A stretch of 64,000 nt of DNA, taken from assembly GCA_900544555.1 (NCBI GenBank), contig UQWD01000008.1:14021-78020 (forward strand), written 5' to 3'. The first letter of the stretch is position 1, and each line of letters begins with the position of its first letter. The notes under the pieces are model-generated. The model was given only the letters and a program-made list of their open reading frames with translations. It ran no database searches and was not told the origin of the DNA. The DNA is from an uncultured Eubacteriales bacterium (GTDB lineage: Bacteria > Bacillota > Clostridia > Christensenellales > CAG-138). Shown in pieces: positions 3,142 to 49,790 of this stretch. Position numbers and translations under genes: made by a program.

Positions 3142-3161
3142 CCGCGGAAAGGGGATTGGTT

Positions 3162-3983
3162 ATGGATAAGCTTATTATAACAGCCTGCATTTGCGGAGCG
3201 GAGGTCACCAAGGAACATAACCCGGCCGTACCGTATACCGTGACGGAGATAGCCGACGAGGCGTATAACGCGTATCAGGCGGGCGCTTCGATTATCCACC
3301 TGCACGTGAGAGAGGACGACGGTACCCCGACGCAGAGCGCGAGCCGATTTAAAGCATGCATGGAAGCGATTAAGGAGAAATGCCCGGATGTAATCATTCA
3401 GCCTTCCACCGGCGGCGCGGTCGGCATGTCGAATGATGAAAGGCTTCAGCCCATAACGCTGAACCCTGAAATGGCCACTCTCGACTGCGGAACGTGCAAT
3501 TTTGGCGGAGACGATATTTTTGTAAACACGGAAAACATGATTATAGACTTTGCCCAAAAAATGACGGCCCGCGGTATCAAGCCCGAGGTCGAGGTTTTTG
3601 ACAAGGGCATGATCGATATGGCCATCCGGCTCAATAAAAAGGGCTTTATCCCCTCGCCCATGCATTTTGACTTCGTGATGGGCGTTAACGGGGGCATCAG
3701 CGGGGATCCGCGGGATCTGGTGTTCATGCGCGGCAGCATTCCTGCCGATTGCACCTGGACGGTCGCCGGCGTAGGCCGGTTCGAGTTCCCAATGGCGGTC
3801 ATGGGCATTATCATGGGCGGGCATGTACGCGTAGGCTTTGAGGATAACGTATACCTTGAGAAGGGCGTGCTGGCCAAGAGCAACGGCGAGCTGGTGGAGA
3901 AGGTGGTCCGCCTGGCGCGCGAGCTGGGCAGGCCCGTAGCTACGCCCGAAGAAGCCAGAGCCATACTCGGCCTGAACAAATGA
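3162..3983 (+). CDS. kce: 3-keto-5-aminohexanoate cleavage enzyme (BKACE/DUF849 family)
   Basis: DKLIITAAICGAE N-terminus; TIM-barrel DUF849-like sequence; cluster context. Confidence 0.8.
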   Translation: MDKLIITACICGAEVTKEHNPAVPYTVTEIADEAYNAYQAGASIIHLHVREDDGTPTQSASRFKACMEAIKEKCPDVIIQPSTGGAVGMSNDERLQPITLNPEMATLDCGTCNFGGDDIFVNTENMIIDFAQKMTARGIKPEVEVFDKGMIDMAIRLNKKGFIPSPMHFDFVMGVNGGISGDPRDLVFMRGSIPADCTWTVAGVGRFEFPMAVMGIIMGGHVRVGFEDNVYLEKGVLAKSNGELVEKVVRLARELGRPVATPEEARAILGLNK

Positions 3984-4023: not shown

Positions 4024-5064
4024 ATGGCTATTAAAGGAAACAGGTACGGCGTACACCGCGTAATTGAACCTCAGGGCGTATTAACCCAGGCCGCGTATAA
4101 GATCGACAACGACATGACCAAGCGTTATTCCAACGAGATCATATGCGACGTGATTTCGCTCAACATTGATTCGGCTTCGTTCACACAGATTGAGGAGGCC
4201 TGCGAAAAGGATACCGAAAGGATTAAGGCGATGATCCTTTCAATTGTAAACGAGCGCGGCAAAATGCAGAACCCCGTCACCGGCTCCGGCGGCATGTTCA
4301 TCGGCAAAGTCGCCTATATCGGCGAGGATCTTAAGGACAGGGATCTCAAGGTGGGCGACAAAATCGCTTCGCTGGTGTCCCTTTCCATGACGCCGCTCAA
4401 GATTGTGGAAATTAAGGAAATTCATATGGATATCGACCGTGTGGACGTTGTCGCGCAGGCCGTATTGTTTGAGAGCGCCATTTACGCCAAGCTGCCGGAC
4501 GATATGAGCGAGGCGCTTGCCCTGGCCGCCCTTGACGTTGCGGGCGCGCCGGCCCAGGCCGCCAAGCTGGTAAAGCCAGGGGACTCCGTGCTGGTGCTGG
4601 GCGCGAACGGTAAATCCGGCATACTGTGCTGCTACGAGGCCATGAAGCGCGTTGGGCCCACCGGCCGGGTCGTCGGCCTTGTCCGCCGTGAGAGCCAGAT
4701 TGAAAAGCTGATGGAGCTGGGCGTATGCCACGAGGTCGTCGTTGCCTCCGCTACGGAGCCGGTAGCCGTGCTGGACAAAGCGCTCGCCGCCAACGCCGGG
4801 AAGGAATACGATCTTTCCATCTCCTGCGTAAACATTGAAAACACGGAGATGAGCTGCATACTGCCGGTCCGCGACGGCGGCACGGTGTACTTCTTCTCCA
4901 TGGCGACAAGCTTTACCAAGGCCGCCCTTGGCGCGGAAGGCGTGGGCAAGGACGTGAACATGATAATCGGCAACGGCTATACCCGGGATCATGCCGAAAT
5001 TACCCTGCACGAGCTGCGTGAGAGCGAAAAAATCCGCGATCTCTTCAACAGGATTTATGTTTGA
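4024..5064 (+). CDS. kdd: L-erythro-3,5-diaminohexanoate dehydrogenase
   Basis: Rossmann motif GANGKSG; 346 aa; cluster context. Confidence 0.8.
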   Translation: MAIKGNRYGVHRVIEPQGVLTQAAYKIDNDMTKRYSNEIICDVISLNIDSASFTQIEEACEKDTERIKAMILSIVNERGKMQNPVTGSGGMFIGKVAYIGEDLKDRDLKVGDKIASLVSLSMTPLKIVEIKEIHMDIDRVDVVAQAVLFESAIYAKLPDDMSEALALAALDVAGAPAQAAKLVKPGDSVLVLGANGKSGILCCYEAMKRVGPTGRVVGLVRRESQIEKLMELGVCHEVVVASATEPVAVLDKALAANAGKEYDLSISCVNIENTEMSCILPVRDGGTVYFFSMATSFTKAALGAEGVGKDVNMIIGNGYTRDHAEITLHELRESEKIRDLFNRIYV

Positions 5065-5292
5065 TTAAATCACGTGATAAAGGGCTTTACCTTGAAATAC
5101 CGCAGGGGCTGTTATGGGGCGCGGAATAATGCGTCTGGTAACAGCCCCCGCGTATCGGCGCAAAACAAAGCCCCGCGTAAAAGACGCGCGTCCCCTATTA
5201 TCCATGCTTTTGGGTTGGGGCCGGCGCGTGGAGTATTATTCCGAGACCGTACTGCGTTTCGGATGACAGCGAATATATGAGGAGGAGAGCGT

Positions 5293-32734: not shown

Positions 32735-33337
32735 ATGTTTCAAACGGCGATAGGGGTAACAATACCTTTTCCCGAAAGGGTTGGGGAAGGGTACCGGATT
32801 ACGGACGGCGCGGTCCGGGCGAGTGTCAGCTTTGAAAAGCTTGACGCGGTTATACGCGAATTTATCAGTTTGATAGAGGAACCGATGTTCTTAGCGCTTC
32901 ATATCCCTCTCCCGGAAGGCGCGACCGAGGAAATGAGCGTTTACGGCGAGGGTACCGGCAGCGTATACGAACAAGTGATGTATCTGGATCAATGTTCAAG
33001 AGAACAGATGCTGTATGTGTATAATACCTTTGGCGGGATATTCCTGGCCGACGGCGTATCGCAGTTTGCGATTGCCTCGCATAAGAGTGGGGATGAGATG
33101 TTTGTTCAGCTTTTTAAAATCGTGGATTTTCTCGGCGAGGGGAGGCTGCGTTATACCTCTTTGCTGGAAAAGCACGGGATTTACCCGTCGGATGGTTTGT
33201 TAACCGCCTGGGACGTACTTGATAAGGAGCATCCGGGCAAGTGCCGGTTGGTGAAGGTGCTCGGAACAACCATTTACGACGCGGTGGAAAGGCTAAAGGA
33301 GTTCGGCCTGTATGCCGCCGGGGTTATTGAGCGTTAA
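32735..33337 (+). CDS. Hypothetical protein (200 aa) downstream of floT
   Basis: Good RBS AAAGGAG; no recognisable family. Confidence 0.5.
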   Translation: MFQTAIGVTIPFPERVGEGYRITDGAVRASVSFEKLDAVIREFISLIEEPMFLALHIPLPEGATEEMSVYGEGTGSVYEQVMYLDQCSREQMLYVYNTFGGIFLADGVSQFAIASHKSGDEMFVQLFKIVDFLGEGRLRYTSLLEKHGIYPSDGLLTAWDVLDKEHPGKCRLVKVLGTTIYDAVERLKEFGLYAAGVIER

Positions 33338-33707
33338 TTCTTACGGCCGCAGGGGGCGCGCAAAGTTTTGCCGCCCTCGGCGGCGCTTTTATTTCTTGAA
33401 TATGCTGTTTGCGCTGCAAGTGACGCAATAGCTTAAGTTATCATTTTTTTAAATCATAGCAAAAAACACAGGATCTGATTTTGTCGCTTTAAACTGGCGC
33501 AAATTCAAAGTATAATAAAAACGTATCAGTCGGAATGGTTTTGGTTGATAGGGGTGCTTTTCGCATTTATAGCGGCTATTGTGAAGCGCAGGATAATCGA
33601 TCAGGCGAAGCTAACGCCAAAGAACAAAGTCACGCGTTATAAGGTATCCTGAACAGGCATAACAAAGCTGTCGGCGGCTGGCAATACATAAGGGGTTTGA
33701 ATGGAAA

Positions 33708-34271
33708 ATGCCAAAGCTAAAACATATTAAGGCAACGCTGCTGATTATTTTTATATGGGTGGTATTGTATGTAATCAATATATTTGTGGATCTTATACCG
33801 ACTCTATCCGGCAGAGGCTTTAATCTGATGAATGGAGAATACTATCGCATTATTACATGCGCCTTACTTCATACAGATTTTCTACACCTTTTAGCGAACT
33901 GCCTTGCTTTATATTGGATAGGCTACTACCTCGAATGCAATATTGGGAGCGGAAAATTCCTGTTGTTTGCGCTTGTCGCATATATCGCATCGGAAACCGT
34001 ATTCTTTTCAATATTCAGGGACGCGGAAAACTCGTTTGGCGGCTCATCCATTACGTTTGCGTTAATCGGCTTAATTTTGATACTGCAATTTGCAAAACCC
34101 GTTTTTCCAAAGTTAAAGCTTGGTACGTGGTATGGTAATTGGATAGTTTTTTATAGCGTTCTAGGGAATATTCCAATACTTCCCTTCATGGATTTTTCGA
34201 CCGTGGTCATTCATTTAGTTTCTTTCTCGATAGGCGCGGTATTGGGGATACCCTTTCGCTTTATGATATAA
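33708..34271 (+). CDS. Rhomboid-family intramembrane serine protease (short, about 6 TM)
   Basis: HLLANCLALYWIG (HxxxN); GGSSITFALIG (GxSx); IHLVSFSIGAVLG (H..G..G); in AT-rich DNA. Confidence 0.65.
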   Translation: MPKLKHIKATLLIIFIWVVLYVINIFVDLIPTLSGRGFNLMNGEYYRIITCALLHTDFLHLLANCLALYWIGYYLECNIGSGKFLLFALVAYIASETVFFSIFRDAENSFGGSSITFALIGLILILQFAKPVFPKLKLGTWYGNWIVFYSVLGNIPILPFMDFSTVVIHLVSFSIGAVLGIPFRFMI

Positions 34272-34520
34272 GCGGATGCAGAAGATAATAATCAAGCGTG
34301 AATGTAAATTTATCGTAACCGTTTATCCCGTATTGCCGGTAATTTGTATTTAGGAAATGTTGAAATAATCCGAATGCACGGGCGCTAAACCGGCTAATAT
34401 GTTTATATGAAAACGCTGAATAATTGTTCAAGCTCTATTAGTTAGGGTATTCTGCTAAACCGTCGAATAAGAGATAATATAACTACATAATGCCTAGGAT
34501 TTACGACTAATAATATCTTA

Positions 34521-34690
34521 ATAAAATAAAAAATATATTAATTCGACCAAGTAACGTTTAGCGCCAAATGAGGATATATAAGTGAAATGCTTCTCGGGCG
34601 TGGGGGTAATCAACCTTCTTTTTCCTTTCTTCGTTCTTGATCGCAATGCACATTACTTCATATTCGACAGCCCAACCCCCACGCCCTATA
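34521..34690 (+). ncRNA. Duplicated structured element, copy A (candidate sRNA)
   Basis: Conserved 5' block ATAAAAAATATATTA-TTCGACC..ACGTTT..GATATATA.GTGAA.TGCT. Stem CGGGCGTGGGGG (34595-34606) / CCCCCACGCCC (34676-34686) closes a 69-nt pyrimidine-rich loop. Confidence 0.4.
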
Positions 34691-34926
34691 TGCTATGAAA
34701 ACAGTCAACATGAATCGGCGGTTTTAGCAAAGCTGGAGGCAAAAATCCGAAGCGACTATTAGTTGTTGAATTTTAATAATCGTTTAAATCATACTTGCGT
34801 AAAACAGTAAAAATTCTATTCTTCAATATGCCGGCTAAATACTATTCCAAATCCTAGCAAGTTAAGAGTCTCATCACTACTTATTGTCATAAATTCTGAC
34901 ATAAATCAAATAAATCATACAATTAA

Positions 34927-35090
34927 AAATAAAAAATATATTATTTCGACCGCGTGACGTTTGACGAATAATAGGGATATATGGTGAATGCTACCCGGGC
35001 GTGGGGGAACCAAACATTCCTTCTTTTCTTCCGACAGTACAATACACATCATATCACTTGTTTACAAGCCAGCATACCCCCGCGCCCTAC
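34927..35090 (+). ncRNA. Duplicated structured element, copy B (candidate sRNA)
   Basis: Same 5' block. Stem CCGGGCGTGGGGG (34995-35007) / CCCCCGCGCCC (35076-35086) with a 68-nt loop. One U-A to U-G change relative to copy A. Confidence 0.4.
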
Positions 35091-35489
35091 TTATAAAAGT
35101 CAGCGGACCGGAGCCGATGGCTTAAGCAAGGCGAAGGCACAGAGCGCGCTTACGCGTTTTACCTAAAGATAACGGCTTATCTTTTATCTACACCATACAC
35201 TGGCCAGGCGGCAAGCGATATCTATAAGCTCAACGAATACGCGCCTGTTGAATCAGCCATAGAGGGGTATGCCCGCAATATGGAAAAACCCCGGCTGCGC
35301 CGGGGGTGCGAGTTATAAACCAAACAAAGCACTGTATAGTTGGAACGAAGTCCGCATACACAAAATAAGCTGTTTTTGCGGCAGGCGTGTACGAAACGCG
35401 GTTTGTTTCGTCATTAAGCAGGCGAAGGGTTCATTGACTTGAGACCGCTAGACTTGGCGGCGCTGATAACCGCCAAGGCTAGGGCAGAT

Positions 35490-36677
35490 CTATTTCGCCG
35501 CGTTTTTTAATACCCTTCCGATGCGGTTAAGCGCCTTTTCAAGTAAAGTAGACGGGCAGGCGATGTTAAAGCGGAAGAAGCCCTCGCCTCCTTGGCCGAA
35601 CATACGCCCGTCGTTGGGGAAAACTTGAGCCTCACAATAAAACAGCTGTTCAAGCGTATCCTGGTCAATGCCAATGCCGCCGAAATCCACCCAAAGCAGA
35701 TATGTCCCTTCAAGGGGGTAAACGCGGGCCTGCGGCAAATCCCGGGCAAAAATATCCTCGGCGAGTTTTCTGTTTGAATCGATTACCTCTATGAGCCCGT
35801 CCAACCATTGCCCGCATTCGTTATACGCAATTTCACACGCCCGATAGCCCAGCGCGTTCACGCAGAACAGCGAACTTTTACCCATACTATCGATCATGGC
35901 CTTGCGCCTTTTTGGATCCTGAATGATGATGTTGGACGTATACATCGCGGCCAGATTGAACGTTTTGCTCGGGGCCGTACAGACAGCGCAGTTCTCAGAA
36001 GCCTCGGCCGATACGTTTGCATATACCGTATGATGGTTGCCGGGCATGATAATATCCTGATGGATTTCATCACAAACCACAAAAACGCCGTTTTTGAGGC
36101 ATATTTGACAAATGCGCTCCAGTTCTTCCCTTGTCCAAACGCGCCCGGCGGGGTTGTGCGGATTAGACAGTAATAAGAGCGTATTCCCAGGTTCTGAGGC
36201 GGCTCGCTCCAGCCCCTCGTAATCTATTTCGTAGCTGTCGTTCCTTATGACGAGCGGGTTATCGACCACATGGCGCCCGTTTGCGCGTATAGCGTTCATA
36301 AAGGGAAAATATACCGGCGGCATTACGATAACCCCATCTCCCGGATTTGTGAACGCCTTTACCATTTGGAACAAAGCGGGTACAACGCCGGGGGTTACGA
36401 TGACCCAATCCTTTTCAATCGTATAGTTATGGCGCGTCCCCATCCAACGAACGACCGCCTCATAATAGCTGTTTGTAGCGTGCGTATAGCCCAGTACGGC
36501 GGTATCAAGATAGTTTTTCAACCCCTGAACAATCTCCGGCGCGGGGTAAAAATCCATATCGGCAATGGACATGGGCAGGGCCTCATCGTTCACGGACGGG
36601 TTCTTGCGAAGCATATCATCCCATTTAATCGAACCGGTTCCCGCCCGGTTTATAACCGTTGTAAAATCATATTTCAT
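35490..36677 (-). CDS. patB: PLP-dependent C-S lyase (MalY/PatB family aminotransferase)
   Basis: MKYDFTTVINRAGTGSIKWD N-terminus; start moved to the ATG preceded by AGGATGG. Confidence 0.75.
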   Translation of the reverse strand: MKYDFTTVINRAGTGSIKWDDMLRKNPSVNDEALPMSIADMDFYPAPEIVQGLKNYLDTAVLGYTHATNSYYEAVVRWMGTRHNYTIEKDWVIVTPGVVPALFQMVKAFTNPGDGVIVMPPVYFPFMNAIRANGRHVVDNPLVIRNDSYEIDYEGLERAASEPGNTLLLLSNPHNPAGRVWTREELERICQICLKNGVFVVCDEIHQDIIMPGNHHTVYANVSAEASENCAVCTAPSKTFNLAAMYTSNIIIQDPKRRKAMIDSMGKSSLFCVNALGYRACEIAYNECGQWLDGLIEVIDSNRKLAEDIFARDLPQARVYPLEGTYLLWVDFGGIGIDQDTLEQLFYCEAQVFPNDGRMFGQGGEGFFRFNIACPSTLLEKALNRIGRVLKNAAK

Positions 36678-36953
36678 TTTCGGCAACCATCCTGACAGCA
36701 TATTTCCCGCAATATGACGATAAGCGGGACATAATTGGTTATATAACATACCGGCGTTAAAGTCAATCCCGCTTAGCAGAGCTGTACCCCGCATGCCCGG
36801 GCGTTTATCTATTGTTTCCGTTTTGACGCGGCCGGGGTTAATGGCAATAAAGCATGAGCCGAGCGCTGAGTAAGGCTTAGAAACGCCAAAGGCTCATACC
36901 CGGATACGGCGCGCCTGACGGGAGCTGGTGGTTTTGAATTGAGCGATAGGGGC

Positions 36954-48987: not shown

Positions 48988-49656
48988 TCAGGCGGCATTT
49001 TGCGCCGCGCCGTACAGGAAACGCTCCAGCGGTTTACTAAACGCCCTGCCGGCGAGCTTAACAAGAAAGCCCACCCCTATGGCGGAAATCACGGTACCTT
49101 CCCTTACGCTTATCAGTTCGCCAAGGGAAATGAGTGAAATGGCGGCGGATATCAAGACGAGCGCGCTATCAAAAGCGATTTTGATCTTCCAAAAGGGGAA
49201 CCGGGTTTTACGCTCCGCCGCCTGTATCAGGCCTTCCCCCGGCAGCGGCATGATGCGCGCGCAAAGATATAAAAACAGGCCGAGCGCTATTAACGCCATG
49301 CTCAACGCCAGCAGCAGCATGCGGGCGCCATAGGCTTGAGGTGAAGGTACGGCCTGCGTTACCAGTCCCGCGAACGTGACAAGATAGCCGAATAAGGTGG
49401 AGCAGAGAATTTGCAGCAGATTCCTCAGCTGAAAATCCCTGCGGAGTATCAAGAGCTGAAGCAGTATAAAAACGACAAATACGAGGGTGGTAAGAACGCC
49501 CAGATCCACCCCCGTCGCAAGGCTGAGCGCATAAGGCACGCAGCTTACGGGCGATACGCCAAGATTTGATTTAACGGAAAAAGAGATACCAAACGCAATC
49601 AAGCACAGCCCAACCACATAAACAACCGCTCTTTTTAAGTATGCCGTAAATTTCAT
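48988..49656 (-). CDS. YitT/DUF161 family membrane protein
   Basis: MKFTAYLKRAVVYVVGLCLIAFGISF N-terminus; start preceded by GGGAG. Confidence 0.6.
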   Translation of the reverse strand: MKFTAYLKRAVVYVVGLCLIAFGISFSVKSNLGVSPVSCVPYALSLATGVDLGVLTTLVFVVFILLQLLILRRDFQLRNLLQILCSTLFGYLVTFAGLVTQAVPSPQAYGARMLLLALSMALIALGLFLYLCARIMPLPGEGLIQAAERKTRFPFWKIKIAFDSALVLISAAISLISLGELISVREGTVISAIGVGFLVKLAGRAFSKPLERFLYGAAQNAA

Positions 49657-49790
49657 ATCGGCTCCCACTATAAAAGTATAAAAGACTTTACATATCTGCG
49701 GCCCGCTCAGAGACGCACATACTACGGCGTCGGGCTAATCCCGAAACAGCCGCCGGGCCGCGATTCATCGGCCGGGAAGAACATGATTGC

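Follow-up and report, generated by a model that had tools for sequence, protein, structure and literature searches.

The window analysed here is a 64-kb stretch of a contig from an uncultured Eubacteriales bacterium, and it carries at ~33250-35200 an AT-rich island in which a gene for a rhomboid-family intramembrane protease is followed by two copies of a repeated non-coding element that may represent a pair of genes for small regulatory RNAs (sRNAs). The island, mapped as a feature to 33340-35250 with no strand assigned, lies between a gene for a 200-amino-acid protein and a higher-GC non-coding stretch that precedes an aminotransferase gene, and the composition profile gives it a GC content of 0.32-0.45 against 0.50-0.64 on both flanks. 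The rhomboid gene (33708-34271, + strand) is an open reading frame (ORF) of 187 amino acids with a precomputed match to Pfam PF01694; the GC profile and this gene together bear out the original prediction, made from the letters of the DNA, of an AT-rich island with a rhomboid gene.

Beyond the rhomboid stop codon 1218 nt of DNA (34272-35489) run to the convergent aminotransferase gene (35490-36794, - strand). All ORFs in this stretch are of 61 amino acids or fewer and none is conserved, in keeping with the earlier description of 1.2 kb without a credible ORF. Within it lie the two elements which, as judged by sequence comparison, are genuine, non-coding and under selection, and which match no Rfam family.

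Anatomy and predicted fold of the two elements

The elements are direct repeats on the + strand whose starts are 401-403 nt apart, matching the spacing of about 400 bp first described. The entire conserved unit spans 34523-34760 in copy 1 and 34926-35164 in copy 2, both delimited by nhmmer and covariance-model matches and the former also by a peak of conservation against the equivalent locus in a sister species (L123, described below). Common to both copies is a 20-mer block, AAAAATATATTANTTCGACC, that is found in the window only at 34529 and 34932, where 0.06 matches would be expected by chance.

Each unit opens with an A-tract and promoter-like block, recognised from the sequence and from an alignment of the copies (A2), which occupies 34523-34583 in copy 1 (A-tract 34523-34541) and 34926-34984 in copy 2, both on the + strand as are all of the parts that follow. 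In copy 1 there is then a 5' leader, GAAAUGCUUCUC (34584-34595), with 94% identity to its L123 orthologue, a 5' stem arm, GGGCGTGGGGG (34596-34606), a G-poor loop of 69 nt (34607-34675) that contains the pure-pyrimidine run CCTTCTTTTTCCTTTCTTC at 34614-34632, and a 3' stem arm, CCCCCACGCCC (34676-34686), the two arms having been located by repeat search and folding. For copy 2 pattern search and folding place the 5' arm, again GGGCGTGGGGG, at 34997-35007 and the 3' arm, CCCCCGCGCCC, which brings one U.G wobble on the + strand, at 35077-35087, either side of a second G-poor loop of 69 nt (35008-35076) with the pyrimidine run TTCCTTCTTTTCTTCC at 35017-35032. Downstream of the stem, alignment A2 reveals a tail motif with the consensus GG.TT(A/T)AGCAA(A/G)G, present as GGTTTTAGCAAAGC at 34720-34733 and as GGCTTAAGCAAGGC at 35119-35132. 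Copy 2 ends in a weak terminator-like hairpin seen in the minimum free energy fold and in the sequence (AGCGCG-CTTA-CGCGTT then TT, 35143-35160), and the copies are separated by a hypervariable spacer (34761-34922, no strand assigned) that is defined by its counts of single nucleotide polymorphisms (SNPs) and indels and by its identity to L123.

The stem arms follow the pattern GGGCGTGGGGG/CCCCC(A/G)CGCCC in both copies, giving a perfect 11 bp in copy 1 (12 bp counting an adjacent U-A) and 11 bp including the U.G in copy 2, and the GC stem of 11-12 bp that had been predicted is therefore borne out in both. With up to one mismatch allowed, GGGCGTGGGGG has four matches in the window, all of which are these four arms. 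Of the loop lengths first given, 69 and 68 nt, that of copy 1 stands whilst that of copy 2 becomes 69 nt when the stem is read as 11 bp. Pyrimidines make up 68% of the loop in copy 1 and 59% in copy 2, and the pure runs of 19 and 16 nt are the second and third longest in the window on either strand, which agrees with the description of the loops as pyrimidine-rich. G is scarce (6/69 and 5/69), the ratio of C to G being 20:6 and 20:5, and little internal structure is predicted. Compared with shuffled sequences the fold energies of the + strand stem-loops give z = -3.25 for copy 1 and z = -2.32 for copy 2, whereas the - strand fold of copy 2 (z = +0.28) is no better than shuffled. The RNA structure is a prediction and as such unproven.

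Upstream of the stem the conserved A-tract and two alternative, weak -35/-10 arrangements are present in all four copies of alignment A2 (two from each species), with the A/T tract preceding each arrangement at the distance of an UP element. The candidate sigma-A promoters of copy 1 are TTCGAC (34542-47) and CCAAAT (34564-69) separated by 16 nt, or GTAACG (34551-56) and TATATA (34575-80) separated by 18 nt; those of copy 2 are TTCGAC (34945-50) and AATAAT (34967-72) at 16 nt, or GTGACG (34954-59) and TATATG (34978-83) at 18 nt. Transcription of copy 1 would be expected to start at ~34576-34590. Sigma-70-like scan matches further upstream (34500-34527 and 34896-34923) were rejected, since they are not shared with L123 and vary within the species, and promoters for a sporulation sigma factor (F, G, E or K) or for sigma-H were rejected because the spacing and key bases appear not to fit the consensus sequences.

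The + strand is favoured for the elements because of the conserved A-tract and promoter-like block upstream, the fold z-scores, and the weak hairpin with T residues that ends copy 2. Wobble pairs give a weak indication of strand, in that two substitution events fit the + strand and one, a G-to-A change in the 5' arm, would fit the - strand. A - strand transcript that would use the A-tract as the U-tail of a terminator was discarded, since no adequate hairpin precedes the tract.

Conservation, coding potential and searches for relatives

The sister-species locus L123 (Logan ERR11565220) encodes a rhomboid protein 84% identical to that of the window in the same gene order, and carries both copies of the element at the same place (3161-3390 and 3650-3877), both paralogues having been retained since before the species split. 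A further four loci (L001-L003 and L144) are strain loci nearly identical to the window. In what follows w1 and w2 denote copies 1 and 2 of the window and s1 and s2 those of the sister species.

Within the non-coding stretch identity to L123 peaks at 95% over 34575-34634, which takes in the leader and 5' arm as well as the pyrimidine half of the first loop, and this is above the ~85-92% of the neighbouring genes; copy 2 has peaks of 75-85%, and in the spacer between the copies identity drops to 40-50%, locally reaching 60%. The promoter block is 77% identical between the paralogues (w1-w2) and 68-80% between orthologues, the stem arms 91-100% and 82-100%, and the tail motif ~70% and 81% (69-81% over four pairwise comparisons). 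The loops are only ~40% identical between paralogues, whereas their 5' halves reach 91% (copy 1) and 74% (copy 2) between orthologues, the 5' half of copy 1 having 40% identity to its paralogue. From these segment identities the scaffold appears to be constant, with each copy having its own, still constrained loop. The original prediction that loop length is conserved and loop sequence is not therefore stands in part: the loop is 69 nt in three of the four copies and the paralogues differ in sequence as stated, but the loop of s2 is 58 nt (62 nt with a stem of 9 bp).

A similar picture emerges from variation among four strains. The leader-stem-loop cores have one SNP in 107 nt (34584-34690) and one in 106 nt (34985-35090), or 0.9%, and no indels, and coding sequences have 0.5-0.8% SNPs. 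The spacer of ~250 nt between the rhomboid gene and copy 1 has 4.4% SNPs and a 12-nt indel, and the spacer between the copies has 16% SNP columns and 27 indel columns, against 2-4% in other non-coding stretches; the spacers are thus 5-18x more variable than the cores. Both within and between species the pattern points firmly to purifying selection on the elements, and the description of a non-coding pair is extended by its conservation as an orthologous pair in a second species.

A single substitution in the leader motif AAUGCU was also observed, at column 70 of alignment A2 (34589 and 34990), where both window-species copies have G and both sister-species copies have A. Coincidence, gene conversion or co-evolution with a shared partner could each account for the two paralogues of a species having the same base.

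A small protein gene on either strand was considered and rejected. ORFs cross the loops on both strands and none is conserved, and the stem is read in different frames in the two copies. In the alignments, which were judged by eye, w1 and s1 differ by two separate, offsetting 1-nt indels within the loop, which shift the frame between orthologues, and between w2 and s2 the changes are biased towards second codon positions (10 second, 4 first and 5 third). Furthermore the ORF of s2 has lost its start codon and acquired an early stop.

Searches for relatives recovered little beyond the known copies. With Rfam 15, cmscan matched no family to the elements at gathering score, the sole gathering-level match in the window being a lysine riboswitch at 2451-2629, and at E <= 10 the region 33300-35520 gave only a chance SCARNA7 match in a spacer (11 bits against a gathering score of 65), so that the check proposed for an uncatalogued RNA was run and no known family was matched. 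ARAGORN found no tRNA or tmRNA, and the elements are accordingly neither. In the window, in 27 loci and in a further ~20 kb of flanking sequence, nhmmer and a calibrated covariance model (R1) detected only the known copies. A further homologue showing covariation had been looked for as a check on the original prediction and none was found; given the isolation of the lineage and the limited reach of the searches, this does not demonstrate absence.

Pattern and similarity searches of wider collections gave the same result. Among genome contigs, the matches listed for the stem-only pattern GGGCGTGGGGG N55-85 CCCCCRCGCCC were chance inverted repeats in GC-rich genomes, lacking the leader and the AT-rich loop; among metagenome contigs a pattern anchored on the A-tract, GGATA and CGGGCG had seven chance matches, most of them within apparent coding sequence; and viral contigs had no match to the stem pattern. 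One of the chance matches to the stem pattern, unrelated to the elements, is a perfect 33-bp inverted repeat, GCCTGCCGCGTGAGGGGCGTGGGGGTTAAGTTT..., that encloses ~63 bp in two metagenome-assembled genomes of Collinsella (L059, uncultured Collinsella, 4988-5134; also L039). For the flanking 200-amino-acid protein and the aminotransferase the next-best relatives are only 40-55% identical, those with names being from Oscillospiraceae and other Clostridia, and the loci retrieved for two such relatives share neither the gene order nor the element. Two distant rhomboid homologues (54-57% identity; L124 and L128) likewise have no element after the gene, and a text search of the literature for the stem sequence gave only unrelated matches.

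Candidate sibling sRNA genes and rival explanations

We put at about even the chance that the elements are paralogous, or "sibling", genes for trans-acting regulatory sRNAs, specific to this lineage and read from the + strand; their transcription, strand, RNA ends, fold in vivo and targets are inferred. The pattern fits the pair of uncatalogued sRNA genes originally proposed in that the elements are non-coding, conserved as a pair and without an Rfam match, but the selection on stem structure that was part of that proposal is not supported.

Each gene would be driven by a separate promoter, made up of an UP-like tract rich in A/T and weak sigma-A-like -35 and -10 hexamers, from which transcription would start ~10-20 nt before the stem to give a transcript of ~170-190 nt. 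The 11-bp GC clamp would hold open the G-depleted and largely unstructured loop of ~69 nt, whose 5' half, rich in pyrimidines (CCUUCUUUUUCCUUUCUUC for copy 1, UUCCUUCUUUUCUUCC for copy 2), would serve as the pairing region. These 5' halves would resemble the 3' tail of 16S rRNA, the window itself containing no 16S rRNA gene. The pyrimidine tract may pair with purine-rich ribosome-binding regions of mRNAs, CCUUC meeting GGAGG by way of one G.U, and such pairing would repress translation or alter mRNA stability. Given the common scaffold and differing loops, the two copies might act on different or overlapping sets of targets.

A number of observations weigh against sRNA genes of this kind. The duplex energies of the loops with the translation-initiation regions of the 56 genes of the window are no better than those of shuffled loops, and no antisense matches of at least 13 nt to the loops were found in ~84 kb of the genome. 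The suggestion that the CU-rich loop targets ribosome-binding sites was thus checked on the window genes and not upheld, and, as these window-limited searches gave no signal above shuffled controls, the targeting mechanism is still inferred. A 69-nt unstructured hairpin loop would be unusual for a base-pairing sRNA. The promoter-like block is indeed conserved in both copies as had been claimed, but in a sigma-70 consensus scan neither arrangement reached threshold in either copy, the hexamers being weak, and with ~6.5% SNPs among the four strains the promoter blocks are more polymorphic than the cores. At the other end the terminator scan found no recognisable terminator for copy 1, and the hairpin that closes copy 2 is weak and below the pass level of the scan, copy 1 having no comparable site. 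The known carriers are two species of one sparsely sampled gut Oscillospiraceae lineage, which makes the family tiny.

The stem adds to these difficulties. Over the four distinct copies from two species none of the 11 stem pairs changes on both sides; seven are invariant, two have a one-sided wobble (U-A to U.G and G-C to G.U) and two are broken in s2. What had been described as a compensatory U-A to U-G change is a one-sided change from A to G that keeps the pair as a wobble, and the stem cannot be taken as evidence of selection on RNA structure, since no pair covaries. With no covarying pair and two pairs broken in s2, something other than pairing could explain why the arms are conserved.

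The first alternative, which we think unlikely, is that the elements are RNA genes whose product binds a protein rather than mRNA, the clamp displaying a G-poor, C-rich loop in the manner of a Rho utilisation (rut) site or a ligand of a cold-shock or S1-type protein, with the RNA titrating or recruiting that protein. Rut sites are G-poor, C-rich and unstructured, and the base composition of the loops and their lack of predicted internal structure would suit such a role, as would the absence of an mRNA target signal in the window searches. The loop length of 69 nt that is kept in three of four copies despite the offsetting indels of copy 1 also hints at a constraint on length rather than sequence. 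However, the 5' halves of the loops are conserved in sequence between species (91% and 74%), which would not be needed for composition alone, the loop of s2 is just 58 nt, and the partner protein is only hypothetical.

Somewhat less likely again is that the elements have a new sRNA architecture, in which the promoter, GC clamp and tail form a constant scaffold and the loop, G-depleted, single-stranded and fixed in length (~69 nt), is an exchangeable, copy-specific, programmable module. If this were true the loop could be a long, multi-site anti-Shine-Dalgarno decoy, or a platform on which Rho or another protein with affinity for C-rich single-stranded RNA is loaded or titrated, and would depart from the short seeds usual in sRNAs.

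There is a slight chance that the elements act as DNA, with the 11-bp inverted repeats as sites for recombination or protein binding, either as a 91-bp inverton downstream of a fixed promoter or as paired operator half-sites. What is conserved in both arms is the sequence, with no covariation, the opposite strand of the loop holds purine tracts that resemble ribosome-binding sites, and the size of the segment between the inverted repeats is within the range of invertons, more than 75% of those detected by PhaseFinder being under 300 bases (PMC11602134). The likeness extends to the short inverted repeats (here 11 bp flanking 69 bp) and to the source, a gut bacterium (PMC11602134). The elements differ from invertons in that the loop has one orientation only, with the pyrimidine tract beside the 5' arm, in both copies of five assemblies (the window, L001-L003 and L144) and of L123, a comparison made on assemblies only. 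There is moreover no recombinase, resolvase or integrase gene in the window or in ~20 kb of flanks, no convincing promoter within the loop, and nothing downstream to switch because the next gene is convergent. The constant orientation in all assemblies and the lack of a recombinase gene disfavour invertible DNA in particular.

An equally slight chance is given to non-functional or decaying remnants, whether duplicated promoter-leader fragments of a lost gene or the leftovers of a horizontally acquired island. The elements do sit in an AT-rich, foreign-looking island beside a rare rhomboid gene, no ORF follows either promoter-like block, and they are confined to two species. Remnants would nevertheless not be expected to have core polymorphism as low as that of coding DNA next to spacers that are 5-18x more variable, to be kept as two paralogues since before the species split, or to exceed the neighbouring genes in between-species identity, as the leader, 5' arm and pyrimidine tract do.

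Slighter still is the chance that the elements act in cis within the rhomboid mRNA, as elements of its 3' untranslated region (UTR) or RNAs processed from it: they follow the gene on the same strand in both species and the terminator scan found no terminator between the stop codon (34271) and copy 1, but both copies come with a conserved A-tract and promoter-like block of their own, the ~250-nt spacer before copy 1 is poorly constrained, and the rhomboid homologues of L124 and L128 are not followed by an element.

Should the elements prove to be transcribed, they would add to a short list of candidate trans-acting sRNAs in gut Oscillospiraceae, for which, to our knowledge, almost no riboregulators have been characterised experimentally. 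A constant clamp and promoter with a variable loop of fixed length could then inform how sRNA paralogues diversify their targets. For now the elements are a reasonable candidate for follow-up and not a discovery.

The other features of the region deserve brief mention. The rhomboid gene has ~39% GC against ~55% for the genome, which suggests horizontal acquisition from an AT-rich Clostridium. Its relatives are rare, with 13 homologous protein clusters in a database of 5.8 billion proteins, the next closest having 84% and then 57% identity; the exact protein is found in 117 blocks of a public assembly index, the loci returned being from gut metagenome assemblies. The 57%-identical homologue of L124 (5080-5643) lies beside a DUF6198 gene, and a DUF6198 gene is also present in the window at ~48988-49668. 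Upstream of the rhomboid gene there is a good sigma-70-like promoter (TTTAAA and TATAAT separated by 17 nt, 33488-33516), and the leader of ~190 nt in this region (33488-33707) is 70-85% conserved in the sister species and without an Rfam family match; it may have a cis-regulatory function that has yet to be characterised.

A third conserved non-coding block lies at 35311-35489, in the interval from copy 2 to the stop codon of the aminotransferase gene. An extended -10 on its + strand is conserved (TGTATAGT in the window, TGTATAAT in L123), and in L123 the hairpin at 35448-35482 is preserved as a structure although its sequence differs (CTTTAATG...CATTAAAG); the fold z-scores of the block are only -1.8 (+ strand) and -2.6 (- strand). 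Either the 3' UTR of the aminotransferase gene or a third sRNA, convergent with that gene, could account for the block. A strong intrinsic terminator on the - strand (CCCCGGCGCAGCCGGGG then TTTTT, 35289-35305) lies ~190 nt beyond the aminotransferase stop codon, which implies that either the 3' UTR there is long and conserved or a distinct transcript is made from the - strand. It falls within the 44-nt region (35263-35306) that was the only plasmid match when the whole 1.2-kb stretch was compared by blastn in its "distant" setting, a match in PLSDB to Subdoligranulum variabile OY725880.1 at 88.6% identity; phages gave nothing.

Elsewhere in the window the lysine riboswitch (71 bits) is directly upstream of a lysine-fermentation operon that encodes BKACE, KDD, lysine 2,3-aminomutase and the subunits of lysine 5,6-aminomutase. 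Such a catabolic operon would need the riboswitch to switch expression on, not off. According to the Pfam tables the gene content of the window and flanks consists of housekeeping, sporulation (YabP, YabQ) and lysine-fermentation genes, and no mobile-element, transposase, reverse transcriptase, Cas or recombinase genes are found in the window or ~20 kb of further flanks.

Comparison with known systems

Several known kinds of element can be set aside. Retron non-coding RNA, IS110 bridge RNA, TnpB omega RNA and tracrRNA were rejected, as the Pfam tables of the window contain no partner gene (reverse transcriptase, recombinase, TnpB or Cas). A miniature inverted-repeat transposable element or other mobile element was rejected on the basis of there being only two copies in ~84 kb, loops that are ~40% identical, and no match to the element in phage, plasmid or viral collections. 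The attC sites of integrons are imperfect inverted repeats with a variable centre, and the elements are like them in having conserved arms around a variable centre and in their tandem arrangement. They differ in that the arms do not match the RYYYAAC and GTTRRRY core sites, the window has no integrase gene, and no cassette ORFs lie between the elements, and an integron origin therefore fails on all three counts.

A parallel, by analogy and in mechanism rather than family membership, is with the RsaE/RoxS sRNAs, in which C-rich regions pair with G-rich ribosome-binding sites and block translation (PMC4409812). The elements, like them, would act through an unpaired pyrimidine-rich motif and would be stand-alone intergenic genes in Firmicutes. 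The elements differ, however, in having a long CU tract without CCCC blocks, and in having one 69-nt loop closed by an 11-bp clamp where RsaE/RoxS carry their motif in several small hairpin loops; furthermore RsaE/RoxS are conserved across Firmicutes, whereas the elements are found in two species. Membership of that family finds no support, there being no Rfam match at E <= 10 (which includes RsaE if Rfam holds it) and no CCCC motifs in the loops.

Finally, bacteria are known to carry sets of sibling sRNAs, for example Qrr, OmrA/B and LhrC. The elements would resemble these sets in being tandem paralogues that have their own promoters and a common scaffold together with partly diverged target-recognition regions. 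In the known sets, however, the seed is usually the most conserved part, whereas in the elements it is the loop that is least conserved between paralogues (~40%), whilst the clamp and promoter are constant.

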